Virus record (IMG/VR): IMGVR_UViG_3300044733_002789 | Location: 1-26,751 of that record | Direction: 5' to 3' (one strand) | Source of the DNA: a virus | Lineage: Duplodnaviria > Caudoviricetes | Length of the DNA stretch: 26,751 nt | Shown: one piece after another, positions 1-26,751 of the stretch | Layout: every line of letters starts with the position of its first letter | How positions within the stretch are numbered: position 1 is the first letter of the stretch | The notes under the pieces: model-generated | Databases searched by the model: none | Told to the model about the DNA's origin: nothing | What the model saw: only the letters and a program-made list of their open reading frames with translations | Program-made: the position numbers and the translations under genes

Positions 1-333
1 GAGCGGCGCCTCGCGGGGGAGGATGTGTCAACTGAGCTATCCGCCGCCGCCTGGGCCGCCACCTGGGCCGCCGCGGGCTGGGGCGTCGCCTGGGCCGACA
101 CCGCCGCTGCCACCGCCGCCACCGCCACCGCCACCGCCACCGCCGCCACCGCCGCCGCCGACGCCGCCTGGGCCACCGCCGCCGCCGCCGCCGACGAACG
201 CGCCGTTGCCGCCGAACGCGCCGACCAGTTGGCCGACCTGCAAGCAGCCGCCCGCGCCGCCACGGGGAGCCGATGCGGGGCCATGGTGGAGGATTCCACG
301 GGGGGCGGGAATGCCGCTATCCTAAACGAATGA
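1..333 (+). CDS. C-terminal part of an Ala/Trp-rich helical phage protein (resembles Imm5-like 'AAAWAA' proteins); 5' end outside window
   Basis: Frame 1 is open from base 1: ERRLAGEDVSTELSAAAWAATWAAAGWGVAWADTAAA...DAAWATAAAAADERAVAAERADQLADL. It ends at TGA 331-333 and overlaps the tailspike 3' end by 12 nt. Family call is from recalled pattern only. Confidence 0.55.
   Translation, partial: ERRLAGEDVSTELSAAAWAATWAAAGWGVAWADTAAATAATATATATAATAAADAAWATAAAAADERAVAAERADQLADLQAAARAATGSRCGAMVEDSTGGGNAAILNE
41..215 (+). repeat. Low-complexity GCC/ACC/TGG triplet repeat
   Basis: Runs of gccgcc, accgcc and gcctgggcc; 51/60 G+C in 61-120. Confidence 0.85.
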
Positions 334-2430
334 AATAACTGGGAAGGTGCTAAAGCTTCTTGCCAAGCCACCTACTGTTGCTGTTGCAGTAACGCAGGGG
401 TGGGTAACAGAGATGGCAATCTCAACCTTCAGGCCGCCGTTGGCTGAGCTACTGGTGGTAATGGTTTGCCCGCCTGTGTTCTGCATAACGATTGGCGCTT
501 GGTCGGCATATCTGCCAACTACCACTTTGGTTGCAAGATTGAAACCAGCCACAGTAATTTCAGCAATGCAGGAACCATCGCTGCTATTAGAAACAAACTC
601 AAATATAACACTTGTGACCGCCCCGCTTTTGTAACCAAAGGCAACCGTATAGGGGTTTACAACTGGAAAGACATATGCGTTAATCGGCCAAGGACCACTA
701 GAGGGTGAAATGTAGGCAGGCTGCTCAAAAAAGTCGTTGACTATTGATGCCGTGTCAAAATTAATGCCAAACAATTTGGGCGCTGTATTCAGGTCAGTAC
801 TAAATCTATTGCCAGTAGACTTGCGAACACCTTGCAAAAGACTGTGCAACTGGAATGTTGCCGATCCATGCTCCGTAGCAGCAATAAAGACACGGTTGTT
901 AGTAAACTCACACTTAGGTGCCGTTATGTATAACCTGTAAGTTCCAGCGGACGATGTAGGCGCACGAAGCTGAATATCACATCTGTCAACGATTAGCGTT
1001 GGGTTTGCTTGGGCGTGTAGGATAGCATAGGCGGTAGGCTGCCTGGAGATGATGTGGCATCCATGTAACTCAGTTTGATTGTCATCATTTAAGGTGTAAC
1101 CTGGGTACAAAGCTACATCGTCAAAGCTGCATGAGTAGAAGCGGGTAAGGCGCGTTGCGGTTACAACTTGTGGGGCGCTGTTATTGGTGTTCTGAAACAG
1201 GCAGCCAAAAAACTGAACTGGATGCTGAACGGTGTCCCTGCTAGTTCCGACAAACTCAAACCCGTTGTTATCCTTAAAGCGACAGCCGATGAATGAGATG
1301 TCTCCGGTCGAATCGTTACCAGCAGCGTTCAGCGGAACCGTTGGGTTGTCATGTGCAAAGTTGGGTTCAATGTCAACTCCCGCCATAGGGCTATGGCCAC
1401 CGTAGGTCCCAGTGGTTCCCGTAAAACTAAAATCGCAGTTAGTGAAAGTAGCATGGCGAAGTTGAATGAGTGACATTCCCTGCCGACCGTTGTTGTTGAA
1501 GCGGCAGTTGCTGGCATAGACCTGGCGTGAAGCCTTGAACGCGGTGATCGGACCACTCATATCAACACGCAAACCATCCGTACAGCAATGGTGGATAAAC
1601 AAATCGCGCAGTGAAACCTGTGTGCAGCCATTCAAAACGACGCCATATGAAGCACCTTCGGCAGTTGCCTGTTTGACAATCGTGTTCGCGCCGCCATCGA
1701 CTTCGAGACCTTCTACCGTGAGGTTTGTGCAATCGGTAAAAACAAAGCCGATGCTGTTTGAATAGGAGAAGGTGAAACCGGACGAGCTGTAATCTGCTGT
1801 GCGCGTCCATCCACCTTTCATCACCAGCTTTGCGCCATAGCCACTAATGCAGACGTTGTTCAGGTTTTGCAGCGCAAAATCGACGATGCCGTTCGCGCTT
1901 GGGCCGCCGTCGATCTTGTACTGGTCGATGAAGTAACTGCCTTTGGGAAAGAACAGCGTCCCACCGCCTGCTGTCTGAAGTCGGGCTACGGCTTTCTTGA
2001 TGGCATTGTAATCGTCTGTGACGCCGTCCCCAACCGCTCCTAAATCCTTAACGGACACCACATCCTTGAGTTTGGAATCAACGGTTCTTGCCGTTGCACC
2101 AGTACCGCTTTGGGTAAACGACAGCTTGCTGGCTGCAATGCCAGCGGAAGCGTGCACATCATCGTCGACGATGATGCCGCCGCCCGACGGGATCAGGCCG
2201 AGGTTGGCGGTGTCCAGTTTGCCAATCGTGATCCAAGCATTGTTCGAGCTGTTGCGCTGCTTTAGCAGTGCTGGGCTGCTGCTGGTGTCCACCCAATACT
2301 GGTAGGCGAACGTCGTACTGGGGGCCGATGCGCCGCTGTTGCTGCTGACGATCGCCGCCAAGGCGTTGTTCAGGTCGGCTAGGACTGCCAAGCCCGAGGC
2401 GTCTGAAATTGTGTAATCGTGTTGGGCCAT
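322..2430 (-). CDS. Tailspike / receptor-binding protein with right-handed beta-helix (pectate-lyase-like, putative polysaccharide depolymerase)
   Basis: 702 aa directly after gpJ. N-terminal virion-attachment segment (MAQHDYTISDASG...), neck motif FTQSGTGATARTVDSKLKDVVSVKDLGAVGDGVTDD followed by GGGTLFFPKGSY, and beta-helix coils (NCRFNNNGRQGMSL, AGVDIEPN). Confidence 0.85.
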   Translation of the reverse strand: MAQHDYTISDASGLAVLADLNNALAAIVSSNSGASAPSTTFAYQYWVDTSSSPALLKQRNSSNNAWITIGKLDTANLGLIPSGGGIIVDDDVHASAGIAASKLSFTQSGTGATARTVDSKLKDVVSVKDLGAVGDGVTDDYNAIKKAVARLQTAGGGTLFFPKGSYFIDQYKIDGGPSANGIVDFALQNLNNVCISGYGAKLVMKGGWTRTADYSSSGFTFSYSNSIGFVFTDCTNLTVEGLEVDGGANTIVKQATAEGASYGVVLNGCTQVSLRDLFIHHCCTDGLRVDMSGPITAFKASRQVYASNCRFNNNGRQGMSLIQLRHATFTNCDFSFTGTTGTYGGHSPMAGVDIEPNFAHDNPTVPLNAAGNDSTGDISFIGCRFKDNNGFEFVGTSRDTVQHPVQFFGCLFQNTNNSAPQVVTATRLTRFYSCSFDDVALYPGYTLNDDNQTELHGCHIISRQPTAYAILHAQANPTLIVDRCDIQLRAPTSSAGTYRLYITAPKCEFTNNRVFIAATEHGSATFQLHSLLQGVRKSTGNRFSTDLNTAPKLFGINFDTASIVNDFFEQPAYISPSSGPWPINAYVFPVVNPYTVAFGYKSGAVTSVIFEFVSNSSDGSCIAEITVAGFNLATKVVVGRYADQAPIVMQNTGGQTITTSSSANGGLKVEIAISVTHPCVTATATVGGLARSFSTFPVISFV

Positions 2431-2436
2431 GGTTGC

Positions 2437-5400
2437 TTAGGGAATTTGACGGCCAAAGCCGATAGCGGTGTAACTAAATTGCCGCGCCACTGCGACGGCA
2501 GCGCTGTTTCTAAATGTAATGCTAAACCCGGCTCTGGTGATGCTTGCCGGGTCCAGAACCCAGTAATCCCCTGCCGCGAGGTTGTAGCCGGTAATCCCAA
2601 TATTTGGCGGTTCATAAAACGCTTCGGCAAACGTCACTGTCAACGCCGCCGCAGTGGTCAGCAGCGTGCCTGATTGCTCGATTCGCTGTTGCAGCTCCAT
2701 AACTGCCCCCAGCTCGTCAATGATGATGTTGCACGCCGGGTCGCTGCTGGTTGCGTAAGCCTTGAACTGGAAGGCCCGGCCCCTCACAATTCCATTAGCC
2801 AACCCGCTCCACTCGCTCCACTGGGGGGCGGTGTTCGGGTCATGCGGCGTTGAGCGCACCAGCAGCGCTGCATCCACATCTCCACCGGATGGGCCCGACC
2901 ATGACGACCAGCCGCCGACCAGGCCATGGCGAGCGCTAACCAGATTCAGCTGATTGAGCGGTCGAGTAACAAAGCGCCGTTGGATGTTTACATCAAATAC
3001 TCCGCCCATGTCATAGGTTGAGCCGAACTCATATTCTCCCCTGGCAGCAACCGGCTGAGTCAGGGAAGAGTCGCTTGAGCCGATAGACGCCACTGCAGCA
3101 ACGCTGGCATACGAACTGAACAGAACACCACTCCCCAGCACCAAAGCATCAAAAGCAGGGCTATATAGCATTTCAATAGCGTTGCCATTGAACGGCGGCG
3201 ATTCCTGATCCTCGGCGTATGTTTTCACCAGCAGCCTGGCCTGAGGCTGCGGCAGGTCGGCAACTACATAGGCGGTTCCAGCGGATTGGCGTCCGCCATC
3301 ATCTTCAAAGCGCAGCAGATAGCTACCCTCCAGCAACGGCACACGCGCTTGCACCTGGCCACCATTGGCCGTTGCAATGCCAATGGCCTCGCCCCATGCC
3401 GGGGTGTCGAGCCTGGGGCTGTGGCGGATCAGGACCTGCCCGCTCAACTTCACATCCAGGTCGAGAGCCTGATCCCAGGATAGGAGAGCAGTATCCGAGT
3501 CGACCGGCACTAGCGAGACGCCTGTTACATCAGTAGGTGGCGCTGTTTTGCCGTACGCGATAAACCGGAGCGCAGACGATTTGCCAGCCAGTAATCCGCG
3601 CAATCCCACGACCGTGATCTCGTAGGTGCCGGTCGCTGAATCTAATATCTCGCATGCAGGCGCTAGCGTGGTCTGCCTTTGCCAGTTGCCACCATTCAAC
3701 CGCCACTGCACACGATAGCCGCTGGCGTCGGCGACAGATGTCCAGCTAAGCTGAATTTTAGCTGCTGCTCTGCCCTGCAATTCGTAGATCACTTCTATGC
3801 CGGTCAGGTTTCCCGGAGCGGCGGGACGTATATTCAGGTCAGTAATATCGCGCGGTTCTAGCGCCCATCCGTATTCAATATTATTGAATACGGATGGGTC
3901 GTGGGCCATGGCGCCGATCTCATAATCCACGCCATTTGTTTCGCTAACGCCCAGCACCCGCCAGAGCGATTCTCTGACGGCAGTGGTCTCGAATTGCCAG
4001 ATGCCATTCGGCATCGGTGCAGACGAAAACCCCGGCGACACTGTGAACACATTGCCAGCAATGCCGGTGACCGGCCGGGTCTGGGCCGTGCTGTCGTTGA
4101 GCTGCACGGACAGGGTGGGGCTGTTGGTGGCCGTCAGGCCCGCGGCGCTGTCGACAGTGATGGAGGTGGTAGTGGCCGCAGCGATCCGCCCCCCTCGGCG
4201 GCTGCCTGCGCGTACTGGATCGGCGATGCCGATCACCTGCCCTGGCCTGGCAATGGAGCCGATCGCCAGGCCTGTTGTCGCCCCCACCAGCTCCTTTTCT
4301 TCCCATTCAGTGTGCAGCAGCCATTTGCCCCAGCGGGCTGCCTGGCCCCTGCTGGTGCAGCCGACCGCCTCGGTCTCGGCTTTGACTACTCCATATTTAA
4401 TAATGGCATCCCTGCGCTCTACAAGCTCGTAGTCGTAGTCTTGGATGTCATTATTAAAGAATTTTACCACTGCAATAGTAGGCCGCTTACGTAAGCGGCT
4501 GCCTGAGTATTTGAAGCCCTCCGGTGACACGTTGGATGTGTTCAGCCTGAACGACACGTCTGCCGGCCTGTCCTGAGCAATAGTCATTGCGCTTTCCGAC
4601 AAGTAGGGCATCGCTCGCATAATCGAGCAAAAATCTTGAATTAGTTTATAGGCGTCGGCGGGCTGATCAATAACCATATTGACAGCAAACCTAGGCTCCC
4701 AGCCACCAAAGCCATCAGGAATCAATTGAGCGCTATATTGGCTAGCGGCAAAAAAAGCCCACCTATCTAGCTGGCTGGCGTCTATGTGATCGCCAAAGCC
4801 ATAGGGCTGCGTCAGTAGATCCCAGAGGCACCAGGCTGGATCTGTCGTCCACTGCGCCGCGCCAAAAGTTCCGTCCCATACGCCGCTATAGATCAAGCGC
4901 CCGTTGCTCGGATCAACTGCTGCGTTGCTGGGAATTTTTACCTCTAGGCCGTAAACGTCAAAGCTGCAAGTTGGAATACTATTGAACTGCTCAGCGCTTA
5001 GCCTGATTCCAGCGTGCGCAAAACCTGGATACGCTAGCTTAGCGTAGGTAATAGGGCTGTAGGTACTCCATACAAGTTGATTAAATAGATTGTTGCTGTT
5101 GCTGTCTGGGGTGACGCGCGACACCCGAATATCCACGGGGAACGCGCCAGTAATGGCGACCTGCACTTGCCGCTGATAGCCTTGCCTGGTGCGACCGCTG
5201 ATCACATCGTCTACCACAGTAGTATAACCACCGCCGTTATACTGAATAGCAACGCGATAGTTTATGCTTGTCGTTAGGATGTCGTTTTTGTCTGTGTATT
5301 CTTCCAGTCGCGGCACGGTAATGGTTAGCCGCACGGCGTTAGCGGTAGCGTCCGTGACCGTTCTGGTAATCGGCGTAGATTGAGCGACCGCTACGCCAAC

Positions 5401-16732: not shown

Positions 16733-17099
16733 GCGAGTCTGAGGCTGACTCACCATCGCCGGGTTCCGGATTCAGCTCGGGCAGTCGAACAATGGTGGCC
16801 GTGCCGTCAAGGTGCAATGTGACATCCCAGGGGGCCATCAGCTGCAATCGGTCGGCAGTGCAGCCTGGAGAATATTTTTCCAGCAACTCGCACAAGTCAG
16901 CGGACAGCGCAAACATTCCAGCCGCTGTAATCCCTAACTCCGCGACCGTTGCCGGTGGATCTGCGCATTGCCAAATTTTGTCCATACCCATTTGCCATGC
17001 GTTCAGCATGGAAGTAAGCGTGCTGAGTGCTATAGTCTGCACTTCTAGCGCGGCTCGTTTTGCCTGGGCATTGCTGCTGAGGGCTTGAATCGTATTCAT
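16725..17099 (-). CDS. Hypothetical protein, possible fibre assembly partner
   Basis: 124 aa; ATGA overlap with the upstream 662-aa gene. Function inferred from position only. Confidence 0.6.
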   Translation of the reverse strand: MNTIQALSSNAQAKRAALEVQTIALSTLTSMLNAWQMGMDKIWQCADPPATVAELGITAAGMFALSADLCELLEKYSPGCTADRLQLMAPWDVTLHLDGTATIVRLPELNPEPGDGESASDSLA

Positions 17100-19084
17100 G
17101 GGTTAAAACCTTTCAGAAGTACATAATTTAGGATTGTAGTGCCGCCAGATCCGGCGGTAACGACAATCCCCCGAATAGCCTGGGTGTGTACGTTGGCGAC
17201 GGTAACGCTCATCGGCGTTGCCGCGTTTGCCGCAAGCGCATTGCCAATGTTGTACCACGCGGCTGTTGGCGATTGCCAATCGTCCTCCGTGCCCTGCATT
17301 TGAACTACCGGGGCAATGGTGCCGATAGCGTCAGCCCTGATTACCATTTGCAGGTTGCGGCAATCGCCAACAATCAGAGCTGGCGTCACGGACGAGGCTG
17401 TAGTTAGCGATATGGTGCGGTCATAGCGCTGGCGAATAACACCAGGCGCTGCATTAAAGACAAGGCGAACAATTGAGCGCGTGAGCTGCGTTCCAGTGTT
17501 TAGGGTTTGAACGTAGCGCCACCTGTTGCCACCAAGAATCAGCACTGGAGACCTGTACTGGCCATTTGCTGTAATGCGCGGCAAATCATAAATAACATAC
17601 CAGGTTGCGCCAGAGTCGCCGGATTGCTCAATCCTAAAATCGGCCCAGGCGTTTGCCCCTGATATGCTGCTTATTGAAATCTCAACTGCAAAACCAAGCC
17701 CCGAACCCGGCGAGATGTTGGCTGAAGTTACGCTGGCGGATATTGTCGCTGAACCAACGTCAGTGGTGGGGGATGTTGTCGCCAGGGAAAAAACTGAGCC
17801 GGACACCGGCACGATTGCTTGGACGCTAGGCGTAAATGATGTTTCACTCCATCGCTGTAGACTAACGTGAACCGTGCCCCCAGTTGTTGCGGTAGCCAAT
17901 CGCAATCTAAACCACAACGCGTAAACGCTTGTGTTATAATTACCTACGGCAAACGTCGTAGGAACAGCGCCAGATGTGGCATTTATTAATTGGGCAGTAA
18001 ATACGCCAACGCTGAAAGAGCTATCTGGCGCCCACTCTGCCACAACCAGGCCACCTGTGCCTATTGAAAAACACTGCATCGACAGCATGCGCGTATTGGC
18101 GCAGTCGATTGGGCCGATCAGAGTTGTGTTGACGCTCAGCGGGCCAGGAGTTGCCTGCTGGTAGACCGAATTGATAGGCGCGGCCGGCGACGCAACAACA
18201 GGCAACGCCGTGCCGCCGCTGGCGCCCTGCACCGACAACACATCCCCGCTGGGGGTTCCGGGAACGCCAATAGCTGGCTGTCTAGCGGCTGTGGCCGCGC
18301 CGGTCGGCAGGCTGGGCTCCACCAACAGCCGACCACTGCTCAGCTCGGCCGGGAGCCGATTCAACAGCGCCTGGTAGAGCACCTGCACTAATCCTGCGAG
18401 GCCGCTGGCGCCAGTTGGCAGGGTGGGGGCATCTGTGCCGGTGACGCCCAGCCTGCCGTCAATGCTGCCCAGCGCAGCATTAGATGCCGCCTGGTTGGTG
18501 GCTGTGGATGCATCAGTCGCCAACGACGGTTCAACCTGCAGCCGCGTGCCGGATAGGGTCAGAATTGGCAGCCTCTCAGTCAGCTGCACGTTGGTCAGAG
18601 GGCCAGAGACCGGCTGAGTTGTCTGCCAAAAAGTCCCTGAAACCGGCTGAGTTGCTGGCCAAAACGTTCCGCTGACTGGCACTGGCTGAGCCCTCAGCTC
18701 AACGTCAGTCAGCGGTCCAGATACGGGCCACCGTCCACCGTCCAGCGGCGGCAATTTGTCGCCGATGCCACCCAGCAAGACATTCCCGGCTGCCTGCAGT
18801 GCGCTGGTAGCGCCTATTTCGCTGTCATCAATAACAATTTGCAGCGCATCGCCGCTGTTCATTGCTGTGGTGACGATCTCAAGCGTTAAAACGCCTGTGG
18901 TCGCGTTATATGCGCCGCCACGCCCCGACTGTACGGGCAGATAAAGATAAATCTCATTAGAAGTATTGACAATGCTGACAATCTGTGCCTGATGCGTTGG
19001 CCTCGTAGATCCCGCTGCAAACGTCACCGTTCCAGCCGTTGGGCTAAACGTAAACAACGATGGGTCGAGCGGTGGCTTGCGCAT
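17096..19084 (-). CDS. Putative virion fibre/appendage protein (head- or neck-associated)
   Basis: 662 aa, Thr/Ser/Gly/Ala-rich. N-terminal domain FTFSPTAGTVTF...VLTLEIVTTAMNSGDALQIVID, PVSGTFW/PVSGPLT repeats, beta-rich C-terminal domains; TAATG-coupled to the connector gene. Confidence 0.65.
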   Translation of the reverse strand: MRKPPLDPSLFTFSPTAGTVTFAAGSTRPTHQAQIVSIVNTSNEIYLYLPVQSGRGGAYNATTGVLTLEIVTTAMNSGDALQIVIDDSEIGATSALQAAGNVLLGGIGDKLPPLDGGRWPVSGPLTDVELRAQPVPVSGTFWPATQPVSGTFWQTTQPVSGPLTNVQLTERLPILTLSGTRLQVEPSLATDASTATNQAASNAALGSIDGRLGVTGTDAPTLPTGASGLAGLVQVLYQALLNRLPAELSSGRLLVEPSLPTGAATAARQPAIGVPGTPSGDVLSVQGASGGTALPVVASPAAPINSVYQQATPGPLSVNTTLIGPIDCANTRMLSMQCFSIGTGGLVVAEWAPDSSFSVGVFTAQLINATSGAVPTTFAVGNYNTSVYALWFRLRLATATTGGTVHVSLQRWSETSFTPSVQAIVPVSGSVFSLATTSPTTDVGSATISASVTSANISPGSGLGFAVEISISSISGANAWADFRIEQSGDSGATWYVIYDLPRITANGQYRSPVLILGGNRWRYVQTLNTGTQLTRSIVRLVFNAAPGVIRQRYDRTISLTTASSVTPALIVGDCRNLQMVIRADAIGTIAPVVQMQGTEDDWQSPTAAWYNIGNALAANAATPMSVTVANVHTQAIRGIVVTAGSGGTTILNYVLLKGFNP
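18595..18730 (-). repeat. (T/A)QPVSG(TFW/PLT) peptide repeats, 33-bp period
   Basis: WPVSGPLTD...PVPVSGTFWPATQPVSGTFWQTTQPVSGPLTN; accggctgagttg at 18609 and 18642. Confidence 0.85.
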
Positions 19085-24252: not shown

Positions 24253-26130
24253 TCACCGCTTCCAACCAGCAAGGGACAGGCCCCCGCCAACTGACTGGCC
24301 GGACTGTCCCTGCGCTTCCAGTTGATCCCACATCGTCGCCCGGTTGTAGCGGCGGGCAACCAGCTGCAGCGCCGCATAGGCCATCCTGGTGCAGTCGCCG
24401 GCCTCATCGCGGGAGCCGTTGGGGAGTACCCAGCTGTAGGTGGTCTGGCCGTTGTGCCGTTTGGGCATGCGTTTCCACGGGAACAGCTCCGCCAGGAACT
24501 GATCAGTCGAGGCCTCACCAAAATGCAAATAGCCGGGGCCTGGTTGTTCGTTGCGCAGCCGGCCCTGCAGGTGATTGATGCTGGCGTCGTAGCCGATGCC
24601 ATAGAGCAGCACGCCCTTTTTCACGATGCTGTGGTTCTTGCGGTTGACATCCACGGCCACACCTTTCCCGAGCAGCGGCTTGCCCTTCTGAGGCGCCCCT
24701 TTCATCGGCACCCAGTTGGCAGTGCGGCCCCGGCACCAGTCGCGCACCTCATGAGTGGCATAGCCGCCGTCGTCAATGCCGCCCATCGCCAGCCGCATCT
24801 CCGCGCCATCGGCCCTGACCCACTTGGTTTTGGCGATCTGATCCAGCTGCGCCAGCGTCTCGGGCTGCTGCGGGTCGCCATCGATCTCCCAGTGGCCCAG
24901 GTGCCAGCCCTCTTCACCACGGCCCCAGCCCCATACCGTCACCACCAACCGCTCGTCTGAGGTGCCGCCGCCGCCCTGCACGTCAACGCCAGCGGTGATC
25001 AGCAGCACGCCATCTGGCACCGTGCCAGCCGGGTAGCCGTTGCCGGCGGTTTCGTTGCGCCTGCGCTCGGCTAGGCCGTCGCCGGTCAATTTGCCGCTCA
25101 GCGTGTCCTCCCATGGCTCGCCTAACACCGTGTTGTGATAGGTCTGCATTGCATCAGGGTCGCCCTTGCGCATTGCCTCCAGGGCCTCGGCGTGCTCGCG
25201 CACCAGCACGGGCCAGCTCGCCGCTGGGGAATAGCTGTAGGCGGCCCAGATGTGGAAGCTCACCAGGCCCGGCTGCTGGCTAACAGCCGTGGGGCGCCAC
25301 TCGCCGCGCTCCACCATCCACCGTTTTTTGCTGTGGGGGATCGGCTCGGCGCAGTTTTCACACCCGTAGTGGCCGGCGTGCTCGCCCTCGCGAATCATCT
25401 GCTCCCAGCGCAACACCTGCATCACCTGGCAGAACGGACACGGCACGAAATAGCGCCGTTGGTCGCCCCTCAGGAACCATTCCTCGGTTTTGCCACCCTT
25501 AAAAATTGGAGTGCCGCCTAGGCCGATCTTGCGATCCCAGTAATAATCGGCCCTGTTGCGGCCTAACTTGATCGGATCGCCTTCATCGAGCTTGGGGTAG
25601 GCGTCCACCTCATCAAACAGCACAACCTTGCGGCTTTTGCGTCGGAAACTGCGACCGCTGGCAGCGTTCACAATGTCAACCAAGCCGCCGTTGCTCAGCT
25701 GCTTTAACAGAATCGTGTTGCTGACTGTATTGCGAGCTTTGCTTTCGGAGATTAGGCCACGCAGGCAGGGCGTATTTTGAAACAAGTCCTTAATTTCTTC
25801 TTTGCTATAGCCCTCTGCGTCTTCTTTGACCGGCTGCACAATCATCACGGGGCATGGATCCTGATGGCTGAACAGCTGAATCACCACGCCCAACATCTTT
25901 GTCCAGCCAATTCGAGCGCTCTTCATAATCGCCACCGTCTCCACAGCTGGGTCGGTGAAGGCGTCGAGGATCTCGCGCTGATAGGGGAGCGTGTTCCACC
26001 GCCCCTTCTCAGCAGCGTTGCCGGTCATCACCGCAAACTCGTCGGCGTACTCGCTCAGCCGCAACCGTGGCGGCGGCTTGAGGCCGGCCAGGATCTGCCT
26101 GGTGAGTTCGGCCGGATCGGCGGTGATCAT
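24253..26130 (-). CDS. terL: Terminase large subunit, lambda GpA family
   Basis: 625 aa; Walker A KSARIGWTK, Walker B VLFDEVD, GTP, GDQRRYFVPCPFC...CENC, nuclease ITAGVDVQ, IDDGG, RDEAGDC. Confidence 0.96.
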   Translation of the reverse strand: MITADPAELTRQILAGLKPPPRLRLSEYADEFAVMTGNAAEKGRWNTLPYQREILDAFTDPAVETVAIMKSARIGWTKMLGVVIQLFSHQDPCPVMIVQPVKEDAEGYSKEEIKDLFQNTPCLRGLISESKARNTVSNTILLKQLSNGGLVDIVNAASGRSFRRKSRKVVLFDEVDAYPKLDEGDPIKLGRNRADYYWDRKIGLGGTPIFKGGKTEEWFLRGDQRRYFVPCPFCQVMQVLRWEQMIREGEHAGHYGCENCAEPIPHSKKRWMVERGEWRPTAVSQQPGLVSFHIWAAYSYSPAASWPVLVREHAEALEAMRKGDPDAMQTYHNTVLGEPWEDTLSGKLTGDGLAERRRNETAGNGYPAGTVPDGVLLITAGVDVQGGGGTSDERLVVTVWGWGRGEEGWHLGHWEIDGDPQQPETLAQLDQIAKTKWVRADGAEMRLAMGGIDDGGYATHEVRDWCRGRTANWVPMKGAPQKGKPLLGKGVAVDVNRKNHSIVKKGVLLYGIGYDASINHLQGRLRNEQPGPGYLHFGEASTDQFLAELFPWKRMPKRHNGQTTYSWVLPNGSRDEAGDCTRMAYAALQLVARRYNRATMWDQLEAQGQSGQSVGGGLSLAGWKR

Positions 26131-26751
26131 GCTGCGCAGCCTGAGCTGAACAGGTCAATTTGCTTACCACCGATGCAAGCCGGCGACAGCCACAGCCGCT
26201 CCCTGCGACCGTTCAGGCTGTTCGTGCTGTAGCCAGCCCCTCCGCCCGCCTTGCCCTCGGCGACGCTCCACCCGTAGGGCAGCAGAGCATCGTGCTCGGT
26301 GTCGTAGCCGCAGAGGATCACGCGCAGCTCACGCGGAGCGGTCAGGCACCAATCCCGCACGGCCAGGGCCACGCCCTCGGATGATTCGGCATAGAGATCG
26401 CCGGAGGTGGCGTAGGGCGGGTCCAGGAAGATCGCCCGCGTGCCATCGCCGCCGGTGCCGCTGCGGATGACGGATGGCTTGACCACCCGCTCCCATGATC
26501 CGCAGGTGATGCGCACGCGGCGGAGGCGATCAGCAAGCTGCCCCATGTAGGCCTCAAGCTGGCCCCGCCCCGCATCCCCGAGGTGCGGCAGCTCGCGGTT
26601 GACGCCCTGCCCCGCATTCCCGAGGTGCGGCAGCTCGCGGTTGACGCCCTGCCCCGCATCCCCGAGGTGCGGCAGCTCGCGGTTGACGCCCCGCCCCGCA
26701 TTCCCGAGGTGCGGCAGCTCGCGGTTGACGCCCTGCCCCGCATTCCCGAGG
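26127..26751 (-). CDS. DNA amino-methyltransferase (Dam/D12-like, DPPY), 5'-truncated by window, with in-frame 14-aa tandem repeats
   Basis: The frame is open from 26750 through the repeats into GQLEAYMGQLADRLRRVRITCGSWERV...IFLDPPY...ILCGY...RERLWLSP. DPPY is catalytic motif IV; the SAM-binding motif I must lie upstream if the enzyme is intact. ATGA overlap with terL. Confidence 0.82.
   Translation of the reverse strand, partial: LGNAGQGVNRELPHLGNAGRGVNRELPHLGDAGQGVNRELPHLGNAGQGVNRELPHLGDAGRGQLEAYMGQLADRLRRVRITCGSWERVVKPSVIRSGTGGDGTRAIFLDPPYATSGDLYAESSEGVALAVRDWCLTAPRELRVILCGYDTEHDALLPYGWSVAEGKAGGGAGYSTNSLNGRRERLWLSPACIGGKQIDLFSSGCAA
26562..26751 (-). repeat. 42-bp coding tandem repeat, at least 4.5 copies (LPHLG[N/D]AG[Q/R]GVNRE)
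   Basis: Plus-strand unit gccc(c/t)gccccgcat(c/t)cccgaggtgcggcagctcgcggttgac starts at 26562, 26604, 26646, 26688 and 26730 (cut by window end). Confidence 0.97.

Follow-up and report, generated by a model that had tools for sequence, protein, structure and literature searches.

Why would a phage DNA methyltransferase carry one short segment of itself in several tandem copies, and what could the copies do? The question is raised by a 26,751-nucleotide stretch of viral DNA, referred to here as the window, which ends inside such an array. A first-pass annotation had noticed the repeats and had proposed a TALE-like, repeat-variable insert in the target recognition domain (TRD). Comparison with related genes indicates that the array is real, family-wide and likely under selection. 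A literature search found no description of this 14-residue repeat, with REBASE and supplements outside its scope, and a characterised member may exist; the only match to the unit motif was a paper on a casein peptide. The favoured reading, held with a confidence just short of even, is that the array amplifies the base-reading loop of a Dam-type enzyme. Three residues of each unit would then diversify as alternative recognition loops that alter or widen the set of methylated sites.

The array and the complete gene

The 42-bp tandem array seen at first inspection is recovered by TRF with a period of 42, 4.5 copies, 95% matches, no indels and a score of 352. It lies in frame with the open reading frame that encodes the DPPY motif, both on the minus strand (Table 1). 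The order of residue pairs read from the window units (NQ, NR, DQ, NQ, DR) is reproduced, as is the lack of silent differences among them, and all four combinations of N/D with Q/R are also present in the full six-unit gene. The N/D difference falls on unit base 19 (AAT/GAT; window positions 26576, 26618, 26660, 26702 and 26744) and the Q/R difference on unit base 29 (CAG/CGG; 26566, 26608, 26650, 26692 and 26734). The claim that only two nucleotides vary holds for the window units but not for the full gene of a near-identical phage, where a third variable base past the contig end, unit base 1, exchanges K and E (AAG/GAG). The first N, at 26744, is present in the window, and the four other assemblies all have D there. 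Its codon lies 8 bases from the contig end and holds one of just 7 mismatches over 26,751 bases between the window and the complete phage G001 (99.97% identical). This N in the outermost unit may be a strain variant or an error at the tip of the assembly.

Table 1. Features of the window around the methyltransferase array
Feature	Position	Strand	Remark
Terminase large subunit gpA	24253..26130	-	PF05876, PF20454; start overlaps methyltransferase stop by 4 bases
Methyltransferase, 3' 207 codons	26127..26750	-	373-aa Dam-like (D12, alpha-class) DNA amino-methyltransferase
Catalytic motif IV, DPPY	26412..26423	-	No change in D, first P or Y across 138 aligned relatives
TCGSW strand	26493..26507	-	Counterpart of EcoDam YCESY by residue count and fold
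Array, 42 bp / 14 aa	26562..26751	-	Units 2 (partial) to 6 of six; x-L-P-H-L-G-x-A-G-x-G-V-N-R
Unit 2, partial	26721..26751	-	x-N-Q in window, K-D-Q in G001 and L002-L004
Unit 3	26679..26720	-	E-N-R
Unit 4	26637..26678	-	E-D-Q
Unit 5	26595..26636	-	E-N-Q
Unit 6	26553..26594	-	E-D-R; continues into TRD-closing helix

The first 166 codons, with motifs X, I and II, most of the TRD, the hairpin and unit 1, lie past the end of the window's contig. As the record stops inside the array, the full gene was taken from near-identical phages. A 29-base pattern search found four further viral contigs, three of them with the whole 373-aa six-unit gene (L002:2550-3671). Extension of the contig, which had been proposed as a check, reveals a frame open upstream and an intact motif I; the protein carries PYFGGK at residues 8-13, YVEPFAGS (motif I) at 30-37, LNDAD at 55-59 and DPPY at 276-279. 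In gene order its six units read K-D-R, K-D-Q, E-N-R, E-D-Q, E-N-Q and E-D-R at the three variable sites. Long open reading frames in other frames across the array were discounted, given the free variation of silent sites from gene to gene.

The existence of the array is already settled against an origin in faulty assembly, which is scarcely credible. The window contig, L001 and several others do end in the array, and P0277 and pairs like L009/L088 could reflect collapse over a 69-base perfect repeat. Against this, the exact six-unit protein occurs on 10 contigs and the array is identical base for base across three separate assemblies. Array carriers include an isolate genome and a single-chromosome assembly (L085, L083), the diverged units of distant members cannot arise by collapse, and errors would have no reason to favour amino-acid-changing bases. 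Logan contigs of four lake runs are fragmented, with no piece spanning the array, and are uninformative on variation within a strain. P0277, from the cluster of P0002 and on a 47,538-bp contig, encodes the same protein minus two units (K-D-R, K-D-Q, E-N-Q, E-D-R) and may be a true variant or an assembler collapse.

Enzyme class and position of the array

The enzyme had been taken for an alpha-class, Dam-like methyltransferase with motif I upstream, and the complete protein bears this out with an intact X-I-II-TRD-IV motif order and the Dam fold in its AlphaFold model (pTM 0.78). PF02086 gives 30.3 bits against a cut-off of 22, and the Dam subfamily model TIGR00571 gives 30.1 bits, below its cut-off of 114.85. 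These profiles place the enzyme in the D12/alpha class but not in the Dam subfamily. The model matches E. coli Dam (EcoDam, 2g1p) with Z 19.4 and an rmsd of 2.8 over 228 aligned residues, and the next unrelated entry scores 10.3 (VIA); the Z scores for M.CbeI (7m6b), DpnM and T4 Dam are 19.1, 17.8 and 16.6. Foldseek places the predicted model in the two-domain Dam fold (E 1.8e-8). A PDB search with the single sequence returned nothing, but the family profile did give matches, the best being M.CbeI (E 2.8e-11). A BFVD search returned distant Dam-like models only.

E. coli Dam, T4 Dam and DpnM (2g1p, 1yfl, 2dpm) share with the array enzyme the fold, the motif order, DPPY and the predicted TRD hairpin, at 12-19% identity, and the likeness extends to occurrence as an orphan phage gene. 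They have a short loop after the hairpin, where the array enzyme has one to six or more copies of the unit. Dam makes m6A in GATC, which need not be the site of the array enzyme. M.CbeI is described as a DPPY enzyme producing m4C (PMC3425538), so DPPY here is no proof of an adenine target, and the product may be m6A or m4C. M.CbeI belongs to a restriction-modification pair, unlike the array enzyme.

The array was expected between motif I and DPPY, in the target recognition region, and it is found there, directly after a beta-hairpin in the AlphaFold model. The predicted hairpin (residues 140-149) immediately precedes unit 1, and a long helix immediately follows unit 6. R141 is separated from P151 by 10 residues, as is R124 from P134 in EcoDam; P221 of the last unit is separated from T248 by 27 residues, as is P134 from Y161 (in YCESY) in EcoDam. 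With these equal spacings a one-unit gene would be colinear with EcoDam here, and the D/N site would fall on Y138. EcoDam is described as reading the fourth base pair with R124 and contacting a base pair with P134 and L122, with K9 and Y138 in recognition of the first base pair (PMC4417163). By gapless count between the anchors, the 14-residue unit is likely to be the EcoDam loop with P134 and Y138, and the unit would then contact DNA. The mapping uses a count because hhalign alignments to EcoDam and T4 Dam were confined to motifs X-II at the N-terminus and did not reach the TRD. The counterpart of EcoDam R124 is not conserved in distant members, in which a hairpin-like pattern occurs in just 53 of 150. 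In the AlphaFold model of the six-unit protein, made without DNA, the array over residues 157-223 has no secondary structure and a pLDDT mostly below 50. The single unit of a one-unit relative likewise has a pLDDT below 50 and no secondary structure. Low pLDDT in models without DNA is compatible with folding on DNA.

Spread of the unit and variation within arrays

The 14-residue unit is a family-wide trait. A homologue search retained 7,856 of 8,000 candidates at E <= 0.001, and strict LPHL(G/A) units were counted in the best 120 of the 7,856 matches plus the query: 9 of these 121 proteins have two units, 95 three, 14 four, 2 five and one six. Single-unit genes are present among 72 viral loci. 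Copy number in close relatives runs from one to six, always in frame, in hosts or genomes that include Cyanobacteria, Actinobacteria and Chloroflexota, which agrees with the suggestion that it can change without loss of frame. The unit is 42 bp and all listed arrays are in frame, a pattern that does not match a frame-shifting ON/OFF switch. A profile search gave 1,729 clusters at 50% identity (E <= 1e-30), and 127 of the best 150 of these contain one to seven units, compared with 2 of 150 after shuffling, by a unit-finding matrix seeded from the same proteins. All 295 units in distant members lie before DPPY or in pieces without DPPY. The unit spacing in distant members is 14 residues for 77, spacings of 12-25 residues also occur, and the unit exists in 17- and 22-residue forms.

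Several relatives have features of their own. The distant P0183, P0187 and P0225 keep the core of the unit within longer repeats (eight of 17 residues; five or six of about 22), which suggests independent re-expansions. Long N-terminal insertions are found in P0187, P0150, P0175, P0196 and P0216 (658-732 aa), which are probably intein carriers; for P0187 there is a match to an intein-containing family model and a weak one to an HNH family. Immediately upstream of the array enzyme, L094:~210-3000 encodes a second DPPY methyltransferase, about 590 aa long and laid out differently, and ORFs related to it occur at 6 loci. A Mycobacterium abscessus prophage (L077:2992-4056; MW584155.1) encodes a relative with a degenerate three-unit array, and a cultured Cutibacterium avidum phage (L078:1980-2933; PV441878.1) encodes one with a single degenerate unit. 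The words 'methyltransferase' and 'methylation' are absent from the main text of the paper on that Cutibacterium phage. Plasmids yielded no full-length relative, with 0 of 17 matches covering 80%, and a plasmid search with T4 Dam as query gave nothing useful.

Variation inside arrays was followed in 58 distinct arrays of at least two units from 81 motif loci, single-unit and duplicate arrays having been dropped. Units differ in amino acid at site 1 in 41 arrays, at site 7 in 29 and at site 10 in 38, and silent polymorphism affects 0-6 arrays per codon. Between genes the same third bases differ widely (heterozygosity 0.19-0.61). With one array per silent background (n=41), amino-acid polymorphism affects the three sites in 72 of 123 cases and silent sites vary in 23 of 410, an approximately tenfold contrast between rows related by descent, for which a Fisher p value is too confident; the early impression that the variable bases mostly change amino acids is upheld. 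When boundary units are excluded, the three sites vary in 9, 9 and 8 (6 without the first unit) of 21 arrays, against 0-2 per silent codon. Among 112 proteins with at least three units, site 1 varies in 107, site 7 in 66 and site 10 in 96, whereas the other seven unit positions vary in 4 in total. The L, P, H, L and glycines of the unit are almost invariant. When genes are compared with one another, the three sites are matched in variability by several surface positions outside the array.

On a 48-gene tree at least 77 silent changes have swept whole arrays and copy number has changed at least 19 times, and 34, 21 and 18-22 arrays are currently polymorphic at the variable bases. For D/N, the contrast within the same codon is 18 versus 0 of 41, though the third base concerned was swept just twice. 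Among 8 non-independent pairs of close relatives, 2-10% apart at silent sites, the final units disagree at site 10 in 75% and at site 1 in 62%. Substitutions go either way (D>N 37, N>D 22, R>Q 30, Q>R 28), and D/N polymorphism is alike after GGG, GGC, GGT and GGA. No reverse transcriptase (PF00078) was found in 5 phage records, one of them complete, and complete G001 holds no template copy of the unit elsewhere within 12 mismatches. Taken together, the amino-acid excess over silent change, the two directions, the several codon contexts and the lack of a reverse transcriptase or template in those records point to diversifying selection on the three residues as the likely and simplest reading.

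It is improbable that the array is a neutral product of slippage whose tolerated sites undergo local hypermutation. A/G transitions make up most changes, 4 of 28 silent sites with a G-G-R-A context are variable, and third-position A is polymorphic in 11 of 51 against 8-10% for other bases. The excess at A appears to leave some room for mutation bias, though not for the whole effect, as tolerated sites are not expected to vary tenfold above silent ones. The specific sources were rejected in turn: a diversity-generating retroelement for want of a reverse transcriptase or template in the element and by the silent adenines (11/51 vs 72/123 at the variable sites), one-way deamination by the two directions of change, and G-run dislocation by the four contexts in which D/N varies alike. 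A retroelement acting in trans from a host is a residual possibility.

Residues assort almost freely among units, with 72 strings among 95 three-unit arrays and 2.66 unit types per three-unit array against 2.83 under free assortment; there is no over-dispersion, and in 6 of 41 arrays all three sites are identical across units. This bears on the TALE-like code first proposed, in which all units would be bound at once, successive bases would be read and copy number would set site length. Such a code would suit the rigid 14-residue period, the few variable positions and the base-reading types of residue. It is nonetheless very unlikely, since no repeat fold is predicted, one-unit genes exist, distant members have irregular spacings, the strings are so diverse and the variable sites are three, not two. 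In a genome of 47.6 kb, long sites would also be scarce and would offer little protection.

A different possibility is that the array, as a flexible DNA-binding loop rich in Gly and Arg, governs affinity, processivity or the level of methylation and not the motif, with the three sites adjusting charge. K/E, D/N and Q/R/K all switch charge, the array is predicted to be unstructured and copy number varies freely on the tree, yet this explanation is unlikely. Net charge varies no less among three-unit arrays than after shuffling (variance 2.25 against 2.58, p 0.17; four-unit arrays p 0.61), and charge balancing within arrays was rejected accordingly. The near-invariant L, P, H, L and glycines also exceed the needs of a charged spacer. 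Some defences sense phage methylases, and the three sites could form a protein-contact surface in an arms race with a host sensor or inhibitor. The diversifying signal has no fixed positional pattern and the loop is exposed and flexible in the model, as such a race would allow. The idea is distinctly improbable, given that the unit sits at the position of the Dam DNA-contact loop, that variation recurs at the same sites across three host phyla and that no partner was found.

Alternative loops, related systems and phage setting

Alternative loops used one at a time appear to be the best reading of these comparisons, and a TALE-like serial code the less likely one. The comparisons show an in-frame array that gains and loses copies by slippage or unequal recombination, becomes uniform at silent sites and stays mixed at K/E, D/N and Q/R/K. 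In the proposed mechanism a single unit would dock next to the hairpin at any one time, with the remaining copies looped out, and unlike units would add target sites. Expression late with the packaging operon would mark progeny DNA against host restriction enzymes, by which arrays of unlike units would be rewarded. Such 'or' logic would account for diverging duplicates and for the persistence of one to six copies, whereas a serial 'and' code would lead to long, rare sites. A broader proposal is more tentative and on balance doubtful. It holds that a large family of phage amino-methyltransferases uses a plug-in 14-residue loop with a three-residue code, stacked loops making a multispecific, programmable m6A/m4C writer that is retuned by 42-bp slippage and point change.

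The nearest functional parallel may be the multispecific C5 methyltransferases, in which one module serves one site and the modules are longer and diverged. The Bacillus phage enzymes M.SPRI, M.phi3TI, M.rho11sI and M.H2I are described as phage orphans with tandem recognition modules. By analogy the array enzyme may work like them, although it is not one of them: they have a C5 core, and it has amino-methyltransferase motifs and fold. Its units differ from C5 modules in being 14 residues long and near-identical, with three differing residues and ongoing copy change. In EcoR124I and EcoR124II a change of in-frame repeat number alters spacer length and with it the recognised site. The difference between these Type IC HsdS proteins is described as four extra residues (PMC12707154). 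Their spacers are identical and lie between two TRDs, whereas the array enzyme is monomeric and has units with variable residues at what would be the recognition loop. TAL effectors are built of near-identical tandem units with few hypervariable residues. The array differs from them in its lack of a predicted repeat fold, in units of 14 rather than about 34 residues, in three non-adjacent variable sites and in its one to six copies.

How phage orphan methylases track shifting host restriction systems is a largely open question. The family offers many natural variants that differ just in unit number and three residues, which makes the link from residue to site testable. If the units set specificity, the enzyme would be to amino-methyltransferases what the multispecific enzymes are to the C5 class, with far smaller modules, and could serve as a scaffold for engineering. 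If they merely tune activity, it would still be a clear case of selection inside a homogenising repeat.

The methyltransferase gene lies upstream of gpA and overlaps both flanking genes by 4 bases, an arrangement that suggests late expression coupled with the packaging operon. G001 is a 47.6-kb phage with lambda-type terminase gpA and portal genes, as well as genes for an HNH protein, a serine recombinase and a sigma-70 factor. Sequencing runs containing the window stretch are mostly lake metagenomes. The named close relatives come from Vulcanococcus, Cyanobium and Synechococcaceae, by which the carrier is likely a temperate picocyanobacterial phage. Neighbours are variable over 91 loci (L005-L095), with a terminase of the G001 type near 8 and another type near 21. 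The 16 commonest neighbour groups of these loci include no conserved nuclease partner other than the HNH gene, which occurs in 4 loci. A putative small terminase gene is so labelled from its position, its product having no Pfam match. Upstream of it lies L107:3612-4598 (minus strand), which encodes a 328-aa protein with an HNH domain at its C-terminus and Cys-rich segments in its N-terminal part. A pentapeptide-repeat ORF with GANLT-like repeats (L105:1-547, plus strand) lies at the start of the complete G001 genome. In the window, positions 41-223 contain GCC-rich low-complexity repeats, and the end of the ORF there is rich in Ala, Thr and Trp (AAWAATWAAA-like). A 662-aa ORF at 17096-19084 (minus strand), with short QPVPVSGTFW-like internal repeats in 2-3 copies, probably encodes a structural protein.
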